A DNA stretch of 32,000 nt from Candidatus Thorarchaeota archaeon. GTDB taxonomy: Archaea; Asgardarchaeota; Heimdallarchaeia; Hodarchaeales; Hodarchaeaceae. The notes beneath the pieces are model-generated. The model did no database searches. It had not been told where the DNA came from and was given only the letters and a program-made list of their open reading frames with translations. Where the stretch lies: NCBI GenBank assembly GCA_048882505.1, contig JBHLRO010000002.1, positions 240,001-272,000 on the forward strand, in the 5' to 3' direction. The position numbers and the translations under genes were made by a program. Shown here piece by piece: positions 1,821-32,000 of the stretch. Numbering within the stretch: position 1 is the stretch's first letter; the number at the start of each line of letters is the position of its first letter.

Positions 1821-3224
1821 TTGAACACGATTATTGACGATAACGCCCTATTAGGGTATTTTCGACCTCGTGGAAAAATAGTTTGCATCGGAGATATCCC
1901 CTCTGCTATGGATATCATCCGAGAGTACTTGGATGTAAGAGAAGAGGCACGCTTGCCGCTATTACACCTAACCTCTCATCCTGTCTCGGATGACTTATGT
2001 GATCAAATCATTGTTTTCAATTCTGAAACCGTTTTGTCTCAAGTACATAATCTTTTAAACGCCTATTTCCTACTTTTTATTTTTGATTCCTCCGATACAT
2101 ATACACTTCCAATTCTGATGGGAGTTCTTGACTCAATTCGAAATAACGGGGCGATCCCTCTTCTGATCGATATCGGGACGGGTTTCGAAAAAGAAGGTCA
2201 AAAATTAATTCCAGGAAGCTATTTCCACCTGGATTCCAAAGAAGAGCAATCCCGTTGGGAATTTCTTGTACTCTTAGATTCTATTATCTCAGTTTTTCAA
2301 TCTCCAAAGGGACTAGGTGTAACTTTTTCTGATCTCATTCAGATTTTTGGAAAAACAGAACAGTTATTCTACGGATTTTCATCATCTCCTGCTCTTGAAA
2401 CTTGCACGATGGATGCAATAGATAAAATTGGACAAATGTTGGCGATCGGTCATCCTGAAGACCTTAAAAGCCTCGAAATTCTCTTCGTCACAGTCCATTC
2501 GCAGGATCCTTTAAGTTTGAAAGAAATGAATAGAATTGTTGAGCGATTCTCAGCTGCATTTGGAAAAGATCTCCAAAATCATTTTTCGAATGTGGTAGGA
2601 TCTTGTTTTCCCGAATATACAATGGCTCTCATGCTGACAGATAACCATCCGATCGAAACAGTATTGCCACCCCTTCTCCAAGAGATAGATGCCTTGATAA
2701 CCTCGTTGGATACTTCGCAAGGCGCTAATGTTGTCGATACTAGCGATTCCGATATTGAAAATTCTCCTGAGGAAGATGTACGATATAAAGTACTTGGACA
2801 AATTTTTACGGAGTCCGAAGTTTATATCTTTGAAGATGGAGGGTTACCTCTTTTTGCAAGCCATCGTCCAGCTGGACAAGAAGTTTGTTTGTACACGGGG
2901 TTGTTTTCGGCAATTCAATCAATGAGTTCCGATCTAATTGGACATACTCCAGATCATTTGACCGCAGGCGACAAACAATGTGTTTTTACATCCCAAATCG
3001 GCCCTGATAACGCACAACTTAGAGGAGTAGCCATATACGCAGAAGGTAACGAACGTCATGCGCGTAAAGATCTGGAATTTACGATGAACATAGTTAAGAC
3101 TCTCCTAGGACAAGGAGAACCTGCATATGCCGTTAATGATCTGGTTCAACAATTTTTGATCCAAGAATTCCAAAAAGGATCAATTAACACCCTATTACAG
3201 AGAGGAAACTACCACGCAAGTTGA
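1821..3224 (+). CDS. Degenerate FtsZ/tubulin-fold protein (aa ~18-275) fused to a C-terminal longin-like domain (aa ~330-455)
   Basis: FtsZ-like motifs in the correct order: KIVCIG, GFEKEGQK (cf. PFxxEGxxR), PKGLGVTFSDL (cf. T7 loop PGLINLDFADV), LFYGFSSS, LFVTVHSQDPLSLKEMNRIV (cf. LIxITGxxDLTLxE), terminal TMALMLTD (cf. RVTVIATG). The GGGTGTG loop is absent. The C-terminal VYIFEDGGLPLF...LYTGLFSAIQSMSSDL matches the Asgard longin-like pattern. TTG start. Confidence 0.7.
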   Translation: MNTIIDDNALLGYFRPRGKIVCIGDIPSAMDIIREYLDVREEARLPLLHLTSHPVSDDLCDQIIVFNSETVLSQVHNLLNAYFLLFIFDSSDTYTLPILMGVLDSIRNNGAIPLLIDIGTGFEKEGQKLIPGSYFHLDSKEEQSRWEFLVLLDSIISVFQSPKGLGVTFSDLIQIFGKTEQLFYGFSSSPALETCTMDAIDKIGQMLAIGHPEDLKSLEILFVTVHSQDPLSLKEMNRIVERFSAAFGKDLQNHFSNVVGSCFPEYTMALMLTDNHPIETVLPPLLQEIDALITSLDTSQGANVVDTSDSDIENSPEEDVRYKVLGQIFTESEVYIFEDGGLPLFASHRPAGQEVCLYTGLFSAIQSMSSDLIGHTPDHLTAGDKQCVFTSQIGPDNAQLRGVAIYAEGNERHARKDLEFTMNIVKTLLGQGEPAYAVNDLVQQFLIQEFQKGSINTLLQRGNYHAS

Positions 3225-4088: not shown

Positions 4089-6281
4089 GTGTCTGCAACG
4101 ATGAAAAACCTTATTTCTTCACCCATTGGCCGTTTTTCACCATTTTTTTCAGGAAATCGCTCTTCTAAACCAGTTCTAACGCTTTTGTGGATAGTTTTGA
4201 TTCTCCTTATCACCCAAATAGACGGGGTTCCTATCCATGCAGAAAATAAATCGAACGGGTTTCCCAATCAAATCATCTTGACTCACGGTGTTCCCCAAAT
4301 CGGAACGTTTTCGAATACAACAATGTCTCATAACTGGAAAATTGAAAATGTTGATACAGGTCAGGAAGTTTATCTTTCTGTAACTCCTCATCCTCCATAT
4401 TTGAAATCTGAATTCAGTGTAGGACTTTATAGACCCGAAGGACAGCTATATACTTCCCTTCTGTCTGAAATTCCTAATCCTTCCTCCTATCTAGTATTCT
4501 TCACAGCCCCTAGTGCAGGGGACTGGATATTCCAAATTAACGATACGCGGATCCTCCGAGACACAAATGCTACCTATGAGGTAATAGTGTCCATACCCAC
4601 ATCAGGATATAATGAGAATACAGCGGTTGAGGTTAGGCAGACCATTAAAACAAAAAATTTTACCACTCCCCATGAAATTCATTATTGGAAGGTTGACTTA
4701 GAGGAAAATCAGAATGGAACCTTGTTCTTGAAGGAAGTTGATTTGAACGTCCTTTTTGAAGCTTGGCTATTCATTTTTCCAAGTAGTAGCCCTTTTAATC
4801 CGATTCTCTCTGAAACTCAAATCCAAGGATCACATAACTTCTCCTGGAATGCTGGGTCTCAGGATACCTACATCATACGACTCACACACAATCCCCAAGA
4901 AATTACTCCTATTGGGCAGTATAACATCTCTTTTGAGGCTGAGCAGGATCTTTATAGCTTTCAGACTGCGGGAGAGTTGCAGGATAACCATACTACTATT
5001 GTAAGAATCACACAGGGATTTCCACGAAAAATTTACTACTTCTCGTTTCGAGTAAACCATAGCAGAGCGGAAATATTCATTCGGATATTTGAAGACAATC
5101 GTACAACATCGAAGGTTCTCGACTTCGCCAAAATCGAAATATATGACGAAGGGGGGCAAAATAGAATTATTAGTGTGGATGAAGTAGACCAGGATCGAGA
5201 TGGCGAAATAAATATTACAGTACTTATACTCGAGATCGGTAGGTATTATGTTGTTGTCATCCCCGAATCCAATAATGTGGGAGTTTTTAAGATTCATTTG
5301 GAAATTCGGCCGCCTCAACCTTTCCTCTGGGATATATCTGGACTTTTTTTGATAGTCAGTACTCTAATAGGCCTTCCTGGTTACTTGATCTATCTGGATA
5401 CGAAAGGAAAATGGTTTCGGGTCAGTCAATGGGTCGTTCCAGCAGACCGAAAGGAAACCTATAGACTGCTAAAGGATAGTTTTAGAGGAATATTTAATCT
5501 AGAAGAGGTTCCTGAAGATTCTATCCTAATCCGAGTCGCGAGTATTCCTGTGTCTACCTATGCTCTAATTAGTTGTGTTGAATCAACTGAAGAGGAGACC
5601 TTGGTATTTTCCAAACGGTTACGCAGAAAGCCCGAATGGATAATCTATTTTTTTATAGGCGCAATCCTTTATGCAAGTCTAAATATTCTAAGTTATCTGT
5701 TTCTCTTCCAGCATTTTCTCCCCTTCTATATAGACGGAATTACAAATCTTCTGCTTGTCCTGATTCTCCCTCTGACCGTTCTGGGAATTCCTGTACTATT
5801 CGTGAATGTGTCTCCAATTTTTGCATATAATCAGCTCAATAACCGCCTCTCTTATGTTATGCAAAACTACCAAAGGGCTTCCGATTCCGGAATAGAACCT
5901 GTTCAGCAATTAGATCTCGATCAAATAATCAAGAATATCAATTATGTCAGGGTGTTATGGAATCAAGCTAAGCGAGCTTTCAAGGAAAAGAACTACGAGC
6001 TCTTTGTAATAAAAGCCGACACCGCTGTCAAAAACCTCCTCTTTGTGCGCTACCAACAGATCGTCTCGCTGAGTCTTCTATCTAAGCCAGATTTTACAAT
6101 GCAGGTTGAAGAACTCAGAACGCATGGGTATGATCTACCTAGTAGCAAAAAGATTATACATTACCGAAATATAAGGAACCGTATTGTGCATTCTTCTGTG
6201 ACACTTGGAGAAAAAGAGTCGATTGATTGCTACGCGTACTACAGCACATTTATTACGCGACTTGGATTGCGACCAACATAG
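4089..6281 (+). CDS. Membrane protein: signal peptide, ~3 extracellular PPC/beta-sandwich repeats, 3 TM helices, C-terminal HEPN-like domain
   Basis: Hydrophobic N-terminal segment (VLTLLWIVLILLI), beta-rich repeats (VGLYRPEG, AGDWIFQI, YIIRL, GRYYVVV), TM segments at aa ~415-437, ~518-540 and ~552-580. The C-terminal helical domain (AKRAFKEKNYELFVIKADTAVKNLL...RNIRNRIVHS...) carries an R-x4-H motif at nt 6174-6191. Confidence 0.7.
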   Translation: MSATMKNLISSPIGRFSPFFSGNRSSKPVLTLLWIVLILLITQIDGVPIHAENKSNGFPNQIILTHGVPQIGTFSNTTMSHNWKIENVDTGQEVYLSVTPHPPYLKSEFSVGLYRPEGQLYTSLLSEIPNPSSYLVFFTAPSAGDWIFQINDTRILRDTNATYEVIVSIPTSGYNENTAVEVRQTIKTKNFTTPHEIHYWKVDLEENQNGTLFLKEVDLNVLFEAWLFIFPSSSPFNPILSETQIQGSHNFSWNAGSQDTYIIRLTHNPQEITPIGQYNISFEAEQDLYSFQTAGELQDNHTTIVRITQGFPRKIYYFSFRVNHSRAEIFIRIFEDNRTTSKVLDFAKIEIYDEGGQNRIISVDEVDQDRDGEINITVLILEIGRYYVVVIPESNNVGVFKIHLEIRPPQPFLWDISGLFLIVSTLIGLPGYLIYLDTKGKWFRVSQWVVPADRKETYRLLKDSFRGIFNLEEVPEDSILIRVASIPVSTYALISCVESTEEETLVFSKRLRRKPEWIIYFFIGAILYASLNILSYLFLFQHFLPFYIDGITNLLLVLILPLTVLGIPVLFVNVSPIFAYNQLNNRLSYVMQNYQRASDSGIEPVQQLDLDQIIKNINYVRVLWNQAKRAFKEKNYELFVIKADTAVKNLLFVRYQQIVSLSLLSKPDFTMQVEELRTHGYDLPSSKKIIHYRNIRNRIVHSSVTLGEKESIDCYAYYSTFITRLGLRPT

Positions 6282-6408
6282 AAGTCAATTTTTAATCCAT
6301 AGGCTCTCGAGTTCTAATTCCTTATGATTGCACTAAAGGACAACTTTATTTAAAAGAATGAGCATTTTACCGTTAAAGAAACCATTGAAGCTCTAGGATG
6401 GTTATCTA

Positions 6409-6693
6409 GTGTCGGAGACGGTTTTAGCTAATTTACCTAGATCGGCCAAAGAAGTCTATAGTATTATCATTAACGAGGGTCCTTTGAGCTCAAAAGAAAT
6501 CGTCAAAAAAGTCTCGTGTTCAACTCGGTCGGTCAGGTATGCTTTAAAATTGCTGCTTGACCAGGAATATGTCAGAAAATATCCCTGTTTAAATGATATG
6601 AGACAGACGCTCTATTCTGTCACTCCCCACCTCCCGAGGGCTACGATAGAGCGTTTGAAGTGGGAATTAATGATTATGACACGGGTTAAGTAA
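6409..6693 (+). CDS. Winged helix-turn-helix transcriptional regulator (archaeal MarR-like)
   Basis: LPRSAKEVY..I.NEGPLSSKEIV......RSVRYALKLL.....V......DMRQTLY matches the common archaeal small wHTH family. GTG start. Confidence 0.85.
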   Translation: MSETVLANLPRSAKEVYSIIINEGPLSSKEIVKKVSCSTRSVRYALKLLLDQEYVRKYPCLNDMRQTLYSVTPHLPRATIERLKWELMIMTRVK

Positions 6694-6741
6694 TATCCTC
6701 TGCCTGTTCTGTTCTCTGAGTACATAAAAACGTTTTTATCA

Positions 6742-8010
6742 TCAACGACCGCCAATCTTCAGAGAACATTTGGCTAAACGTTTATTCTGGACGTACCCCG
6801 CTGCTTTAACGATGTGTCCATCGAAATGGGTGAGCTCCAGTGAGAACTGAATTTTTAATTCATAGGAAAAGACTTCTCCTTGCCCTAAGACACCAATCGT
6901 CTTCTGCCCTGTACCTAAATCCAGTTCAACTCCATCTGGGATTTCCATAATAATTTTCAGATCCTGTAAACTAGTTTTGCCTATATTTTCCGCACTGATA
7001 GTAATCATATATTCATGATCCTCTTCTATGGTTTCAGATACCATAGAGAGCTGTAATGCAGGGGGTGCTTCTTTGATAGAGGCAGTTACGGTTTTTGATA
7101 TCACTGAATATTCCTGGGTCGTATTATGGTCAGCGGGAATTCGATAAACGACTGTTAACGGGCCTATAATCCATTCACCTGGTAAATTAGGAATCAATGA
7201 GTAATGAACAGTTTGACTTGTGCCTTCTGTTAAGGTAATGGGTAGTTGTGGTAGGATTGACGACACTATTCTTCCGTGTGAGCCGATTCTCAAGCTGATG
7301 GATGCGATCGCTAGTTCAGCATATACCGTGAAAGATCCAGAAACCGAAAAAGGTGAGCCTTTCTCAAGAGATTTTGAGCTATCATGTGTAAGGGATGTTA
7401 CCTGACACAGGGAAAGGCGTTGCATAAAATGCTCTGCTTCCTGTTTCACAGGTAAAAACTCCCTAGGCAAATCTATATCAGGCAAGGGTTTTTTTTGAAC
7501 ATATGTATCTTGTGCATGAATCAACTCCCATGTGGTGTCGATAGCTTCTTTATATTCATCATTTACCTCATGATCTAGCTTTTCATAAAGCGGTATTAGC
7601 TTGTCAAGGTCATTCTCCCCCAAAAATATCAAGAATTTCATAAACAAAAACTTGGAAACCGGAATGATGGGCTTAGGGCTAGATTTGGCCACCGCTATGG
7701 CGCGGTTAACGTCTGTCATAACCAATCTAGATGGTTTTGTATTCTTATTGGATAATTTTAGAAGAATTAATTGATAATATAGTTCTGTGGCCTTCTCAAA
7801 CAAGAAAGCTTTTTCTGCACAAAGAGCAGCGTTGTCCAGTGCCATTATTTGCATATCAACGTTACTTAACTTTTTGAAGGCCTTTTCAAACGATTTGAGG
7901 GCTGATTTGAAATTTCGCTGGTCAAAGGCTTTTTGTCCTTTTTTCAGCTCAACACGTGGATCAACACGAAATATGCGACGAATAAGGTACATCGGATCAT
8001 CTTCCGTCAA
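6742..8010 (-). CDS. TPR/alpha-solenoid N-terminus plus two C-terminal Ig-like beta-sandwich domains; probably cytosolic
   Basis: TPR pattern (KGQKAFDQRNFKSALKSFEKA; NAALCAEKAFLFEKATELY), then beta-sandwich motifs (YSLIPNLPGEWIIGPLTVVY; ITISAENIGKTSLQDLKIIMEIPDGV; IGVLGQGE). No signal peptide. ATG at 7992 is an alternative start. Confidence 0.65.
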   Translation of the reverse strand: MTEDDPMYLIRRIFRVDPRVELKKGQKAFDQRNFKSALKSFEKAFKKLSNVDMQIMALDNAALCAEKAFLFEKATELYYQLILLKLSNKNTKPSRLVMTDVNRAIAVAKSSPKPIIPVSKFLFMKFLIFLGENDLDKLIPLYEKLDHEVNDEYKEAIDTTWELIHAQDTYVQKKPLPDIDLPREFLPVKQEAEHFMQRLSLCQVTSLTHDSSKSLEKGSPFSVSGSFTVYAELAIASISLRIGSHGRIVSSILPQLPITLTEGTSQTVHYSLIPNLPGEWIIGPLTVVYRIPADHNTTQEYSVISKTVTASIKEAPPALQLSMVSETIEEDHEYMITISAENIGKTSLQDLKIIMEIPDGVELDLGTGQKTIGVLGQGEVFSYELKIQFSLELTHFDGHIVKAAGYVQNKRLAKCSLKIGGR

Positions 8011-26467: not shown

Positions 26468-27826
26468 TTGGAGGAAAACAGTGTGAGCTATGTAGAAAAA
26501 GCCTTTTGGGACTATTTAAAATCAACCATCTTCGGTGGAATCCGTATTCTCTTATCACGTAGATTAATCTTATTTTCAATTGTACTATTCATCACTTCCC
26601 TGATTACAACGGGAGTCATTATGTTCCAAGACCAAGATTCCACAATTTTAACCCCCGAAGTACTAGAATTCATTGTTTCTTTTCAGATTAGTATCGTCAT
26701 TGGGTTCCTTCTGGCAGGATTGTTCTCAAAGAAACTCAGTACCTCAATCAGGTTTGCTTTATTAATAGTCGTCGTAATTATTGCTCAGGCCCTTTTTTTC
26801 CTGACAGAACAGATGAATGAGCTGCAACCAATTTCAAATGCGTTCCTACAATTCATTCCATTGATAACCTTTTTCAGTTGGACTCTTCTGATTCCATTGG
26901 CGTCTTTTGCATTTGCTAAGGGATTATTTGCCAATAAAATCACTGGCAGCATCCTATTCCTTGGTAAACCAAGTTCAGATCGTAAATCCATTTTTTCTGG
27001 AATAATGACTCTTATAGCGGTTCTTTCTATCTTTTGGAATGTAATCATGCTAGGGATTGGGATTGACCAGGCGCGGCTTAGCTACATCGGTTTAGGAATT
27101 ATTGGGCTTGGATTAGCAGTTTTGGTTATCCTGGTTGTCCAAGGATTTATTACCGGGGATGATGTTTTCAATACGTCCCTCGGGTTCTTTTTCCTGGTGA
27201 GCCTACCTAATCAAATTATGATCTTTCTTACCTCCGTTAGTGGGTCAGAAAACATTGTAACCAGTTTCGATTATTTCATGGTAATTTTTTCCTTGGTTTA
27301 CAGTGCCCAGAACATCTCTAGACGTATCAAAATGAAAGGGAGCGAGACAACGGATCCAAAAACCGAGGATCCATTTCGTATTGGACGATTCATTGGATTT
27401 GTAGGCGGCGAAGGTGTTGTCTTAATCTATTTGGGATTAGCCCTCGGATTTCAACTTGTCCAGCTTCAAGTTTTGAGTGGAATGGCAACTGCATGGACCG
27501 ACCTTTTCGGAGGTCTCGCTAGCTTTTCTGAAATCTATCACGATCTAACAATGGCTAGCATGGTATTTATCCTCCTTATTGTGATCCTTATCTACAAGAT
27601 TCAACGTGGTAAAGGTTATTGGGAGGTCGATATATATCGTTTTGACTTTTTACCCCCCTACGAAGATCTTGTGAGCTACATGGAGAAAATCAAATCAGGA
27701 GAAATCTCTAAAACAGATATTGCCGTAAGTGTGGGAAGAAAAGCAGTTGAGGGAATTGGTGTCTTATCCGCTGCTAGGAAATTTCGTGATACGGTATTTG
27801 GCAGGAAGAAAGACTCTGGCCGCTAA
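26468..27826 (+). CDS. Multi-pass membrane protein (~10-11 TM), function unknown
   Basis: Repeated hydrophobic helices, hydrophilic C-terminal tail; TTG start. Confidence 0.8.
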   Translation: MEENSVSYVEKAFWDYLKSTIFGGIRILLSRRLILFSIVLFITSLITTGVIMFQDQDSTILTPEVLEFIVSFQISIVIGFLLAGLFSKKLSTSIRFALLIVVVIIAQALFFLTEQMNELQPISNAFLQFIPLITFFSWTLLIPLASFAFAKGLFANKITGSILFLGKPSSDRKSIFSGIMTLIAVLSIFWNVIMLGIGIDQARLSYIGLGIIGLGLAVLVILVVQGFITGDDVFNTSLGFFFLVSLPNQIMIFLTSVSGSENIVTSFDYFMVIFSLVYSAQNISRRIKMKGSETTDPKTEDPFRIGRFIGFVGGEGVVLIYLGLALGFQLVQLQVLSGMATAWTDLFGGLASFSEIYHDLTMASMVFILLIVILIYKIQRGKGYWEVDIYRFDFLPPYEDLVSYMEKIKSGEISKTDIAVSVGRKAVEGIGVLSAARKFRDTVFGRKKDSGR

Positions 27827-28655: not shown

Positions 28656-29159
28656 TTGAATCCGATCATTGCATGTTAATTATCTTAAGTCACATAAGGG
28701 GGCAGCCATAAGGTTGTCACGCGATCTTATTTAGTGAACCTACTCGAAAAGAAAATATCCTGTATTAGGAGGAAAGAATATAGCTGTCCCCACTGACGCC
28801 AAAATTGAGAGCACTAACCAGTAAACATTGGAATCTACTGGTTGGAATAGAATCTGAAATAATTGTGAAAGAACTTTGCCAATTTAGGTGACATTATTTG
28901 GAGGGAGTTTCAATACATTTATGAATTCAACTAGTTGCCAAACAAAAAAGATAGGCGAATCCCTCCCCCAACCTCGATTCCTAATTGATGTGTGGTTTAG
29001 ACCAAATCGAATCGCACCGATGAGCTTCTGAGCATAACCTAGATGTTTTTGCATTATTCTTAGAAGTAAAACGGGACGATGCAATATTTATCCACAATTC
29101 AAATAGAGGGTTTCTTTGAAATCCTAAAATGGTCCTTCAATCGGAATTTAATCAGATCA

Positions 29160-30875
29160 ATGGATAAGAAAATGTCTCCCCCACGAGTAATCACGGTTTA
29201 TTCCCGAACTCCCAGATGTGGGAAAAAAACAATCGCCATAAACACATTCTTGGCTTATACCAAGCTGAAACCGGGACTTAGGGTTCTTATTGTTGATTTT
29301 TCTGCCACAGAGGAACTTCAATATAGCCTGCAGAGTTATGGCAAATCACCATTTACTAGCAGTGACTTTATTTCTGAGATCCCAGAAGATACCCTTGTAA
29401 GAGAGGCCCTCGTTGTAAGTGAAGATCCAGACAGGGATAGTTTCGTTCGCGTTCTCCCGTCTTTCGGATGCCCAACTCCTGCAAAATCACTTCTTGAACA
29501 GGTAAAATACCGGATCAACGCTTTGTTTTTCAAAGATACTATCGATATGCTTGTATTTATTGTCCCAGTAGATTTGGAAGAAAGCAGTATCACTATGGCC
29601 ACCATTCTTCAGAGTGATGTGGTGTGGATTATTTCTACAGAAAAAAGCCCTAGCCTGAAAATGACCCGATCAACTATTCAGAACTTTTTGGCATTCTTAA
29701 CGGTTCCTACTTTCCTTATTGTAAATATGGCCAACCCTCCCGTTGTTCTAGGACAATATGAGAAGAAAATAGAGGAATTGCGGGGAAAACTTCGACATCC
29801 TATATTTTATTATATTCCTTGGCTACCAGATCTCAATATGTTCTCTGATGATGGCATTTTTAGCATTGAAAAACCCCACTCCCCCGTTAATTCCATTTTT
29901 CATGACTTTGCTAGGCTGTTCCATAATTTTGCTGAAACTGAACGATATGAACCGGTCTCCTTTGAAGATCAGACAGAAGCACCTCCCAACGCAATATTTG
30001 TTACAGATCGCAGATCAGGCGAATCCATGTTTTATTACTTCTTTGGAAAACCTGCAGACGAAATGAAGCAACCTGCACTAATTACGGCTGCCTTGAACAG
30101 CATTGCACTGATGGTATCAGAAACAGCTGGGCGTCGTGGTGAATGGGATTTACGAAGCATTGATAATGGTAGTACGAAGATTATTTTGCGGAAAGGAAAT
30201 CGGGTGGTTGGAATTCTTTACAGTCCAGTTGAAACAGAGACCCTAAGTAATCTCTTGAGCCAATTTGTCTACCAGTTTGAGGATCAATTTGAAAGCGCAA
30301 TAAACGACTTCTCTAAGACGGGCCGAATTGGAGGGTTTGCTCAGGCAAAAGAACTGGTGAAGAAGGTCTTTAAACCGTACATTTTCGATATAGATACAGT
30401 AAAAGACGACTTACGCCAAAAATTGTTAGCGTACGCGACAGAGACAAATCGATTAAACGAAAATCCGGAGGAAATTTTTCGCCAATATGCAAAAGAGAAC
30501 ATTTCAGATCCAAAAACAAAGGAACTTTTATTATACGAGTTCACTACACCCCACAATCCTCGTCATAAATTTCTCTTAGATCTTAACATTAATCCCCGTT
30601 CTTTGGCCAAACAACTGGAAGAAGAGACTGGTAAACCTTTATGTGAGTGTACGCTCCCCCCTCGTTATGTTCAAATACAGCGATTTGATGCATTGGGGAT
30701 ACTCGATCTTCCTGAGGAATTGCGACCCACTGCCCGAGCGCTTTTCATTTCCGATGTTCTTTCTCCAGAGACTGCAGCTAAAATTACGAAGAGAGAACAG
30801 GAATTTGAACATCAATCTTTAGAAGCGTTACGAAAACTGGGGTACGTGAAACGAATCTCGCCAACTCAGTCTTAA
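29160..30875 (+). CDS. Degenerate MinD/ParA-fold ATPase fused to a longin-like domain and a C-terminal wHTH-like region
   Basis: Likely start is ATG at 29160 (the ORF track starts at 29079). MinD pattern: VITVYSRTPRCGKKTIAIN, RVLIVDFS, SDVVWII, LIVNM, YIPW...PHSPVNSIFHDFARL. Then longin-like AIFVTDRRSGESMFYYFF...LITAALNSI...LRSIDNG..KIIL...FVYQFEDQF. C-terminal SLEALRKLGYVKR. Confidence 0.75.
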   Translation: MDKKMSPPRVITVYSRTPRCGKKTIAINTFLAYTKLKPGLRVLIVDFSATEELQYSLQSYGKSPFTSSDFISEIPEDTLVREALVVSEDPDRDSFVRVLPSFGCPTPAKSLLEQVKYRINALFFKDTIDMLVFIVPVDLEESSITMATILQSDVVWIISTEKSPSLKMTRSTIQNFLAFLTVPTFLIVNMANPPVVLGQYEKKIEELRGKLRHPIFYYIPWLPDLNMFSDDGIFSIEKPHSPVNSIFHDFARLFHNFAETERYEPVSFEDQTEAPPNAIFVTDRRSGESMFYYFFGKPADEMKQPALITAALNSIALMVSETAGRRGEWDLRSIDNGSTKIILRKGNRVVGILYSPVETETLSNLLSQFVYQFEDQFESAINDFSKTGRIGGFAQAKELVKKVFKPYIFDIDTVKDDLRQKLLAYATETNRLNENPEEIFRQYAKENISDPKTKELLLYEFTTPHNPRHKFLLDLNINPRSLAKQLEEETGKPLCECTLPPRYVQIQRFDALGILDLPEELRPTARALFISDVLSPETAAKITKREQEFEHQSLEALRKLGYVKRISPTQS

Positions 30876-31197
30876 AAAGCTAGAAATATGATCCGCTAAA
30901 GCCAAAGAACCATGTATTCCGCCCCTAGGCCGTAATTCCAAGAATTTCCACCAAATCTGCAAAATATTATAAATCTACTAGATAATTTGCTATAAAGCCC
31001 AAAATGAAAGGAAAACAGACTCTACTTGGGCATTCCGCCATTTGAGAAGAAAAAAACTCCTAAAAATCACCTCTCTTTGATATACGGTGTGCAGTTGAGT
31101 GGAACGTACTTTTGGTAACACGTTATCAATTTTTCCAAGAATTCATGCCGAAAAATCGGTATTATAATTAAAAGGATAAACAAGCAGGTATAAGAAA

Positions 31198-31799: not shown

Positions 31800-32000
31800 T
31801 CATTCACGGCTGTAAAGATCTTTCAATTCTTTTGGAGTATAGAGAACTTCTTTTGCTTGCCGAGATTTTTCGACCAGGTCTCTTTTAAATAACTGATTTA
31901 AATGATCACTGATTGTACTCCGCTTTCTCCCCCGTAGATTCGCCAATTGATTGGCCGTCATCGCCTGGTTAGAGTCGACTAGTGTCTGATAGGTTTCCTT
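31800..32000 (-). CDS. C-terminal fragment of a winged-helix (ArsR-like HTH) protein, 5'-truncated by the window edge
   Basis: Not in the ORF track. Hand translation: KETYQTLVDSNQAMTANQLANLRGRKRSTISDHLNQLFKRDLVEKSRQAKEVLYTPKELKDLYSRE*, with stop TGA at 31800-31802. Confidence 0.75.
   Translation of the reverse strand, partial: KETYQTLVDSNQAMTANQLANLRGRKRSTISDHLNQLFKRDLVEKSRQAKEVLYTPKELKDLYSRE

Follow-up and report, generated by a model that had tools for sequence, protein, structure and literature searches.

What might a protein that joins the fold of a positioning ATPase to a longin domain be doing beside a Rab-like small GTPase in an Asgard archaeon? The question is raised by one gene in the window, the 32,000-nucleotide (nt) stretch analysed here, which covers positions 240,001-272,000 of contig JBHLRO010000002.1 from a member of the Hodarchaeales. 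Few known archaea stand as close to eukaryotes as the Hodarchaeales do. An earlier note made from the sequence alone (the original prediction) had described the product as a MinD-fold pseudo-ATPase fused to longin and winged-helix parts, and had proposed that it serves as a scaffold or guanine nucleotide exchange factor (GEF) for the GTPase. The protein has four parts, namely a degenerate MinD/ParA fold, a longin domain, a helical region with two conserved histidines and two conserved cysteines (HHCC), and a C-terminal winged helix. Our reading, which falls a little short of probable, is that the MinD/ParA-fold part is a non-catalytic, at most nucleotide-binding scaffold, and that the longin domain docks in a small-GTPase module with the Rab-like GTPase and a conserved protein family here called U244. 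Hodarchaeales have many Rab/Arf-like GTPases, and genes for such GTPases seldom lie near those of their candidate regulators (Tran et al. 2024, PMC10933270). In what follows, f1 is the window's family-level group, P00xx, L0xx and G0xx denote proteins, loci and genomes, G000 is the window's own genome, P0001 is the protein in question (the target) and P0002 is the GTPase; residue numbers follow P0001, so that amino acids (aa) 8-260 correspond to 29181..29939.

The target gene is real, conserved and lineage-specific, as judged from its reading frame and its homologues. The open reading frame (ORF) runs from 29079 to 30875 on the forward strand, with a further in-frame start at 29160; in an alignment of 32 homologues, most begin with MxxPKV at the conserved start 29172 (MSPPRV), from which a product of 567 aa is most likely. 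A word-indexed search of 5.8 billion proteins returned 64 homologues of about 562 aa (52-96% identity), all from Hodarchaeales or 'Heimdallarchaeota' metagenome-assembled genomes (MAGs). An exhaustive HMMER search returned deep relatives of similar length, P0067 (44% identity) and P0068, P0069 and P0072 (25-29%), as well as P0073, which is P0082 (576 aa) called in truncated form; in the protein collection searched, P0072 stands as a singleton. Across 400 Asgard genomes searched in full, the full-length protein was found in 19 of the 21 other f1 genomes and in one sister-family genome (G070), and matches in the remaining genomes covered the longin part only, within other architectures. The full-length family is restricted to Hodarchaeales, save for one relative from a Thorarchaeota MAG (P0068), and a related-locus search for further distant relatives, started from a family alignment, returned known f1 genomes only. 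Searches of Pfam, NCBIfam and PDB sequences with the target itself gave zero matches, and PDB profile searches with three alignments gave matches at chance level only, save for the weak P-loop match described below.

The fold of the N-terminal domain emerges from structure and profile comparisons, which bear out the full-length MinD pattern of the original prediction. Foldseek, run against the PDB with the full-length AlphaFold model (predicted local distance difference test, pLDDT, 71.7), matched ParA (3ea0, E 1.8e-8) and MinD (1hyq, 4.5e-8), with further matches to FlhG, Soj, FleN and NifH (range E 1e-8 to 1e-6). The hhalign comparison of the N-terminal family profile with canonical archaeal ParA/MinD extended over 238 columns (probability 98.5%, E 2.8e-15). 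Pfam CbiA was matched by 8 of the 32 homologues (best 5.4e-6) and AAA_31 by 7, and all three lines place the domain in the MinD/ParA alpha/beta fold.

The catalytic motifs of this fold are largely gone. In the hhalign map, the signature Lys of KGGxGK[ST] has become T17, the two Gly have become P18 and the variable residue 19, the Mg-binding Ser/Thr has become K23 (Q or R in some members), and the second switch-I Asp has become S48. Throughout f1 the loop reads R-T-P-x-C-G-K-K, a deviant Walker A without its signature Lys, and it differs among the deep relatives (GKT in P0082, GRS in P0068, GKR in P0072). The Walker B Asp position is occupied by I134 and is hydrophobic in every member, including relatives of 22-29% identity. 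The original identification of 'RTPRCGKK' as Walker A and 'IVPVD' as Walker B was therefore correct according to the map onto canonical ParA. Four residues survive in the same map: K22 (the P-loop Lys), T24, D46 (the first of the switch-I Asp pair) and N189, the Asn that follows strand 7. The term 'pseudo-ATPase' was applied because the Walker B and Mg ligands are lost, and loss of hydrolysis in this domain is a sound inference from its sequence. However, because K22, D46 and N189 are kept, nucleotide binding may survive, and the term is best taken to refer to hydrolysis. A weak profile match between the target P-loop and the loop S-x-x-P-G-x-G-K-S-T of the CapA/CapB bacterial tyrosine kinases (BY-kinases) suggests a resemblance to that subtype. 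Compared to MinD, ParA, Soj and FlhG, the likeness is one of fold over about 250 residues, with the P-loop Lys, first switch-I Asp and Asn after strand 7 in common, whereas other residues stand in place of the signature Lys, the glycines of the P-loop, the Mg-binding Ser/Thr and the Asp of Walker B. In addition, the target is fused to longin, HHCC and winged-helix modules, lacks the C-terminal amphipathic membrane helix, and belongs to a family of which most members fall under the Pfam threshold.

The longin domain holds the densest run of invariant residues in the target, according to the 32-homologue alignment. A second model, covering aa 272-571 and built from a more diverse alignment (pLDDT 81), gave this domain the DSSP order beta-beta-alpha-beta-beta-beta-alpha-alpha, which is the topology of the longin superfamily (beta2-alpha1-beta3-alpha2-alpha3, the C-terminal helices packing on the sheet). 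When the model was ranked with VIA-align against 48,161 PDB representatives, the longin domain of VAMP7 came first (Z 12.7, root-mean-square deviation (rmsd) 2.8, 117 residues aligned); other longin matches included SYBL1, Fuzzy, Sec22, AP mu/sigma, delta/zeta-COP, TRAPP Bet5/Trs23, Mon1/Ccz1, SRX and the Lokiarchaeota longin 8yqg, with longin Z scores of 12.7-10 on alignments spanning model residues 1-138 (12.7-11.5 for VAMP7, Sec22, Fuzzy, AP mu/sigma and TRAPP). Proteins of the roadblock type (MglB, LAMTOR, Asgard roadblocks) ranked lower (Z about 8-10) and aligned over the first ~108 model residues only, and Foldseek also pointed to longins (AP sigma, TRAPP, Fuzzy). A longin-like middle domain had been named beforehand as a test of the original prediction, and on these models a true longin fold is confirmed. 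In TRAPP, Mon1-Ccz1, Fuzzy-Inturned, SRX-SRbeta and the GTPase-activating proteins (GAPs) FLCN/GATOR1, it is the longin domains that bind the GTPase. The Foldseek and VIA-align matches of the target longin include the longins of all these systems. Two conserved loops of the domain (aa 297-307 and 320-331), modelled at pLDDT <50, would fit an interaction surface. A GAP-type longin was considered as a candidate and rejected. The longins of this type (FLCN, NPRL2, SMCR8/C9orf72) carry a GP motif just before strand 2 together with a conserved arginine finger (PMC12290439); the equivalent loop of the target, S286-G287-E/x, has the Gly and lacks the Pro, and the R325/R326 loop is kept only in f1 and P0068, being absent from P0069, P0072 and P0082.

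The same longin class is widespread in archaea, where it is fused to winged helix-turn-helix (wHTH) regulators, transporters, CBS domains and histidine-kinase modules. In G000 it forms the cytoplasmic C-terminal domain of two otherwise unrelated membrane proteins, a 609-aa multi-pass protein (L071:2813-4642, minus strand, on G000:C1) and a 486-aa protein that spans the membrane once and has a large N-terminal part (L072:1082-2542, minus strand, on G000:C25). The window itself contains an FtsZ-like protein (1821..3224, plus strand) with a C-terminal longin-type domain that has the beta2-loop-alpha1 pattern of the target longin; close paralogy between the two longins was undetectable by BLASTP (E 1.1).

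The C-terminal H-x3-H...C-x-C motif and wHTH-like end noted in the original prediction also held up. H465, H469, C495 and C497 are invariant in 30 of 30 sequences, down to 23% identity, and again in another family alignment; they form a probable structural Zn site. The last ~63 aa aligned with the winged helix of TFE-alpha (6pln) in VIA-align at a modest Z of 7.8 (rmsd 2.5, 63 aligned), and the second model shows the wHTH arrangement, with helices at model residues 248-259, 265-272 and 276-288 and strands at 231-234 and 292-295; faint HTH_69/TrmB matches were seen in the homologue P0069. Such an end could belong to a transcription regulator of the neighbouring genes, in which the longin and MinD-like domains would serve for sensing or oligomerisation. 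Among AFDB clusters, the C-terminal half is best matched by a protein of 413 aa named 'ArsR family transcriptional regulator', whose longin-helical-winged-helix layout is the same (E 5.1e-10). The relative P0074 consists of a longin and two regions that faintly resemble wHTH (Pfam E 0.01-0.07, none of them reaching the curated cut-offs), and a helix pattern at the C-terminus, LExLRKLGYV, is one commonly seen in the recognition helices of ArsR/TrmB proteins. However, AFDB names are automatic annotation, the cluster already contains a separate TrmB-type regulator, and a repeat scan found no operator-like palindromes at the locus. Additionally, the winged helices of longin complexes such as NPRL2/3 and ESCRT-II mediate protein contacts, and a regulatory role of this kind is considered unlikely, though it stays in play.

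The Rab-like GTPase announced by the original prediction is indeed encoded downstream on the same strand, its start lying 322 nt from the target. Its closest PDB sequence matches are a Thorarchaeota Rab (1e-34), Ypt7, Rab11, Sec4 and Rab1, its orthologues are 75-97% identical with invariant switch regions, and it has no C-terminal (prenylation) Cys; 'Rab-like' appears to be as far as this evidence reaches. Among the 24 loci collected by tblastn, the target is followed by the GTPase in all 18 f1 loci with enough flank. Outside f1, the gene for P0072 (25% identity, locus L028) is followed after 66 nt by a homologue of U244 (blastp 3e-29), with a Rab-like GTPase gene 4 nt further on, in a proteasome-SBDS-exosome setting where all other neighbours differ from those of f1. 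The counterpart of the L028 GTPase in the related genome G069 is the best match to P0002 in that genome (53%, compared to 42-52% for the other G069 GTPases). Since the order target-U244-GTPase occurs in two lineages whose targets share 25% identity, the triad is probably as old as the common ancestor of Hodarchaeales, and probably survived a complete turnover of the surrounding genes. The conservation of the pair that the original prediction had called for is thus present in f1 and in the L028 triad, but it does not extend to several distant relatives that have no GTPase neighbour, two of which lie behind a ParA/MinD gene.

It is also conceivable that the adjacency of target and GTPase is inherited gene order without functional meaning and that the protein acts in an unrelated process. 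The whole 12-gene f1 neighbourhood is collinear, including unrelated metabolic genes (GCHY, RibD_C), which makes the adjacency within f1 weak evidence. In addition, small GTPase genes number in the dozens per Asgard genome (9-18 matches per genome searched; two more in L030), so that chance proximity is common, several distant relatives have no GTPase neighbour, and Asgard GTPases generally lie outside operons with regulators (Tran et al. 2024, PMC10933270). However, the triad persists at 25% target identity with all other neighbours changed and with L028 gaps of 66 and 4 nt, and mere inheritance of gene order is considered rather unlikely, though by no means far-fetched.

U244 is a conserved family of ~244 aa (copies at L002:6362-7096 and L003:7914-8648, homologue at L028:9774-10364) for which no Pfam match was obtained even at E 5, and no PDB or Atlas match. 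In about half of the f1 loci it lies between the two genes, separated by 164-240 nt from the target and by 10-35 nt from the GTPase. In the window lineage it has been relocated to another contig (G000:C5:151736-152476 = L029:6734-7462, minus strand, 62-68% identity), and no remnant of it was found in the 322-nt window spacer. Its range is that of the target (Hodarchaeales only within the class), which favours a common module; U244 has up to five matches per genome, and no other U244 paralogue was found adjacent to a GTPase in 17 places. The spacer holds a single A/T-rich motif, AAAATATTATAAATCT (window 30961-30976), ~200 nt before the GTPase start; its counterpart AAATGATATTTATGT is conserved in other loci without U244 (L001:7827-7841, L008, L010, L012, L014, L016, L018) and missing where U244 is present. 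The motif could be a promoter element or a relic of rearrangement. An Rfam scan of the locus gave no match.

Several observations, besides the collinearity of the f1 neighbourhood, weigh against the docking of the target in a small-GTPase module. L028 is the sole independent lineage that backs the linkage, and in its relative G069 the sequence upstream of U196-GTPase is unrelated and, at a completeness of 85%, no homologue of the target was found. It is U244 that is tightly coupled to the GTPase (gaps of 4-14 nt, or 4-35 nt over the f1 loci concerned and the L028 triad), while the target lies 66-240 nt upstream. In the window, the 322-nt gap with its promoter-like boxes implies that target and GTPase are probably not co-transcribed. 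Because many membrane proteins and wHTH regulators also carry this longin class as a fusion, it need not bind the adjacent GTPase; the target lacks the GP motif of GAP-type longins, and its RR loop is not kept in distant relatives. Among these relatives, those of the G070/P0069/P0081 group lie between a glutamate dehydrogenase and a radical S-adenosylmethionine (radical-SAM) gene and P0067 faces a helicase, in both cases with no GTPase neighbour, while P0068 (Thorarchaeota MAG) and P0082 (Hodarchaeales MAG) stand directly behind a canonical ParA/MinD gene.

The last two cases support a reading that is either a rival or a complement of the GTPase module. The ParA/MinD genes concerned (L026:6176-6976 and L030:5093-5902) carry KGGTGK[TS] and the Walker B Asp; in L030 the ParA gene and the target homologue (5902-7632) overlap by one base, and in L026/L032 the gap is 16 nt. 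The target may accordingly be an adaptor of a ParA/MinD positioning system, in which the degenerate MinD would pair with or regulate a canonical ParA/MinD, the Zn/winged-helix end would bind DNA or cargo (ParB/SegB-like), and the GTPase adjacency would be a secondary or added regulatory input. Besides the canonical ParA gene immediately preceding these two deep relatives, the end-to-end alignment of the N-terminal profile with those ParAs, the C-terminal wHTH and the presence of canonical ParA-like genes elsewhere in G000 favour an adaptor. However, no ParA gene lies beside the target in any f1 locus, the repeat scan found no repeat array at the locus and thus no centromere-like arrays around the gene, and the longin, the best conserved part, is left without a role. 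On balance an adaptor of this kind is considered unlikely.

If the protein does dock in a small-GTPase module, its longin domain would contact either the nearby Roadblock pair or the GTPase, in the latter case as a platform for GEF activity, an effector or an anchor. The dead ATPase domain would serve for dimerisation or for binding a partner, which may be a canonical ParA/MinD, and the HHCC and winged-helix end would make further protein or DNA contacts. A complex prediction for target and GTPase gave an ipSAE of 0.04 (mark 0.32), which counts neither for nor against binding. The proposal that the target is a GEF for the adjacent GTPase is speculative. In a bolder version, the target and U244 would form a prokaryotic longin-based exchange factor or receptor for the Rab-like GTPase, and the dead MinD/ParA fold on which it is built would still pair with a live ParA/MinD; this version is a long shot. 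The gene order and domain content nevertheless make the target a good candidate regulator or scaffold of the Rab-like GTPase, and the link between the two is plausible.

Compared to known systems, the nearest parallels are partial. The eukaryotic longin regulators TRAPP Bet5/Trs23, Mon1-Ccz1, Fuzzy-Inturned and BLOC-3 share the longin topology (Z 10-12), and the target gene adjoins that of a Rab-like GTPase; however, identity is 7-14%, and the target has a single longin on a P-loop fold whereas these regulators have a tri-longin or multi-subunit core. The likeness to the Rab GEFs TRAPP, Mon1-Ccz1 and CPLANE is one of fold and gene adjacency. The alpha/beta receptor of the signal recognition particle (SRP) likewise combines a P-loop of the SIMIBI class (named after SRP, MinD and BioD) and a longin domain in one chain, which binds a small GTPase, the Arf-like SRbeta (SRX Z 8.3-10.9). 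In the target, however, the domain order is reversed, the P-loop is MinD-type and degenerate instead of an NG GTPase, and there is no link to SRP; the parallel is an analogy at the level of fold. The Rag GTPases also have a P-loop followed by a roadblock/longin-type domain (Foldseek RagC/Gtr2, ~360 columns, E ~1e-6), and Ragulator contains LAMTOR roadblock heterodimers where the target cluster holds two LAMTOR5-like Roadblock genes; however, TM-scores are very low (0.13-0.26, rmsd ~21), and the target has a SIMIBI ATPase fold, not a translation factor-related (TRAFAC) GTPase, and a longin in place of a roadblock topology. Lineage-specific shuffling of longins in Asgard archaea and occasional GTPase-roadblock operons have already been described, among them an operon with LAMTOR1-like, Rab-like and DENN genes (10.1101/2020.10.19.343400; PMC10933270); unlike that operon, the target locus has no DENN detected among the cluster genes or as the identity of U244. 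The MinD/ParA-longin-winged-helix architecture is a hitherto undescribed combination, and neither it, with or without the winged helix, nor the U244 family is mentioned in the texts of Liu et al. 2021 (10.1101/2020.10.19.343400) and Tran et al. 2024 (PMC10933270).

The locus therefore offers a defined and testable soluble set, consisting of the degenerate MinD-longin-winged-helix protein, U244, the Rab-like GTPase and the Roadblock pair, which is tied by gene order over deep divergence. If the longin binds the GTPase, an archaeal longin-GTPase pair could be assigned from genome layout, and a positioning-ATPase fold would have been recruited as a pseudo-enzyme scaffold; if it does not, the target remains a well conserved lineage-specific architecture. 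Were the exchange factor that pairs with a live ParA/MinD to prove real, archaea closely related to eukaryotes would couple a small-GTPase switch directly to positioning machinery of the ParA type, following, by analogy, the same logic as SRalpha-SRbeta or Rag-Ragulator.

Table 1. Features of the target gene and its surroundings, in window coordinates.
Feature	Position	Strand	Basis and remarks
Coding sequence, degenerate MinD-longin-HHCC-winged helix	29172..30875	+	ORF list and 32-homologue alignment; alternative in-frame ATGs at 29160 and 29079
SIMIBI-class domain of MinD/ParA fold, catalytic motifs degenerate, aa 8-260	29181..29939	+	Foldseek, hhalign, CbiA/AAA_31 matches
P-loop SRTPRCGKKT, aa 15-24	29202..29231	+	Family alignments and hhalign; K22 and T24 kept
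Walker B-equivalent strand MLVFIVPVD, aa 130-138	29547..29573	+	hhalign onto ParA 'DVLIFDTSPG'; P136 invariant
Longin-fold domain, aa 275-410	29982..30389	+	Model, VIA-align, Foldseek, invariant columns
Helical HHCC region	30390..30683	+	H465-x3-H469 at 30552-30566, C495-x-C497 at 30642-30650; helices in model
C-terminal winged helix, aa 509-571	30684..30872	+	VIA-align to TFE-alpha; faint HTH matches of homologues
Spacer between target and GTPase, 322 nt	30876..31197	.	A/T-rich TATA-like boxes and motif at 30961-30976; DNA alignment, motif counts
Rab-like small GTPase, 179 aa	31198..31737	+	Pfam Ras 1.1e-42; G1-G5 intact
TrmB-type wHTH gene	31800..32000, extends to 32258 past the window	-	Pfam TrmB 2.7e-8; kept in all f1 loci

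Beyond the TrmB-type gene follow two Roadblock/LC7 genes (Robl_LC7 1.8e-11 and 2e-16), a membrane protein with a Zn ribbon and a Yip1 domain (Yip1 3.7e-11) and RibD_C. The tandem LAMTOR5-like Roadblock pair and the Zn-ribbon-Yip1 gene were located at L004:5067-5813 and 5928-6818 (window coordinates about 33066-34817, past the window); they lie downstream of the GTPase in all f1 loci and are absent from the L028 triad. In genome G049 the whole region is missing, as neither the target nor the GTPase orthologue, TM452 or Robl2 is present, and the co-loss test is uninformative there, and in G057 the target, GTPase, TrmB and upstream genes were lost in one rearrangement. On G057:C1, a single contig of 1.4 Mb, Robl2-Yip1-RibD_C is kept while the target, GTPase orthologue, TrmB and upstream genes are absent; a 129-aa ORF on this contig (L051:9374-9763) starts with a GTPase-like P-loop and continues into the C-terminal portion of Robl1. 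A 370-aa membrane protein encoded upstream of the L028 triad has the same longin class as its cytoplasmic C-terminal domain (L028:5311-6423, minus strand). Upstream of the target in the window lie the GTP cyclohydrolase FolE2, a 452-aa membrane protein and MazG. The 452-aa protein, two genes upstream beyond FolE2 (window 26468-27826, plus strand), is multi-pass, belongs to no Pfam family, and is 54-94% identical in all f1 loci that reach that far.

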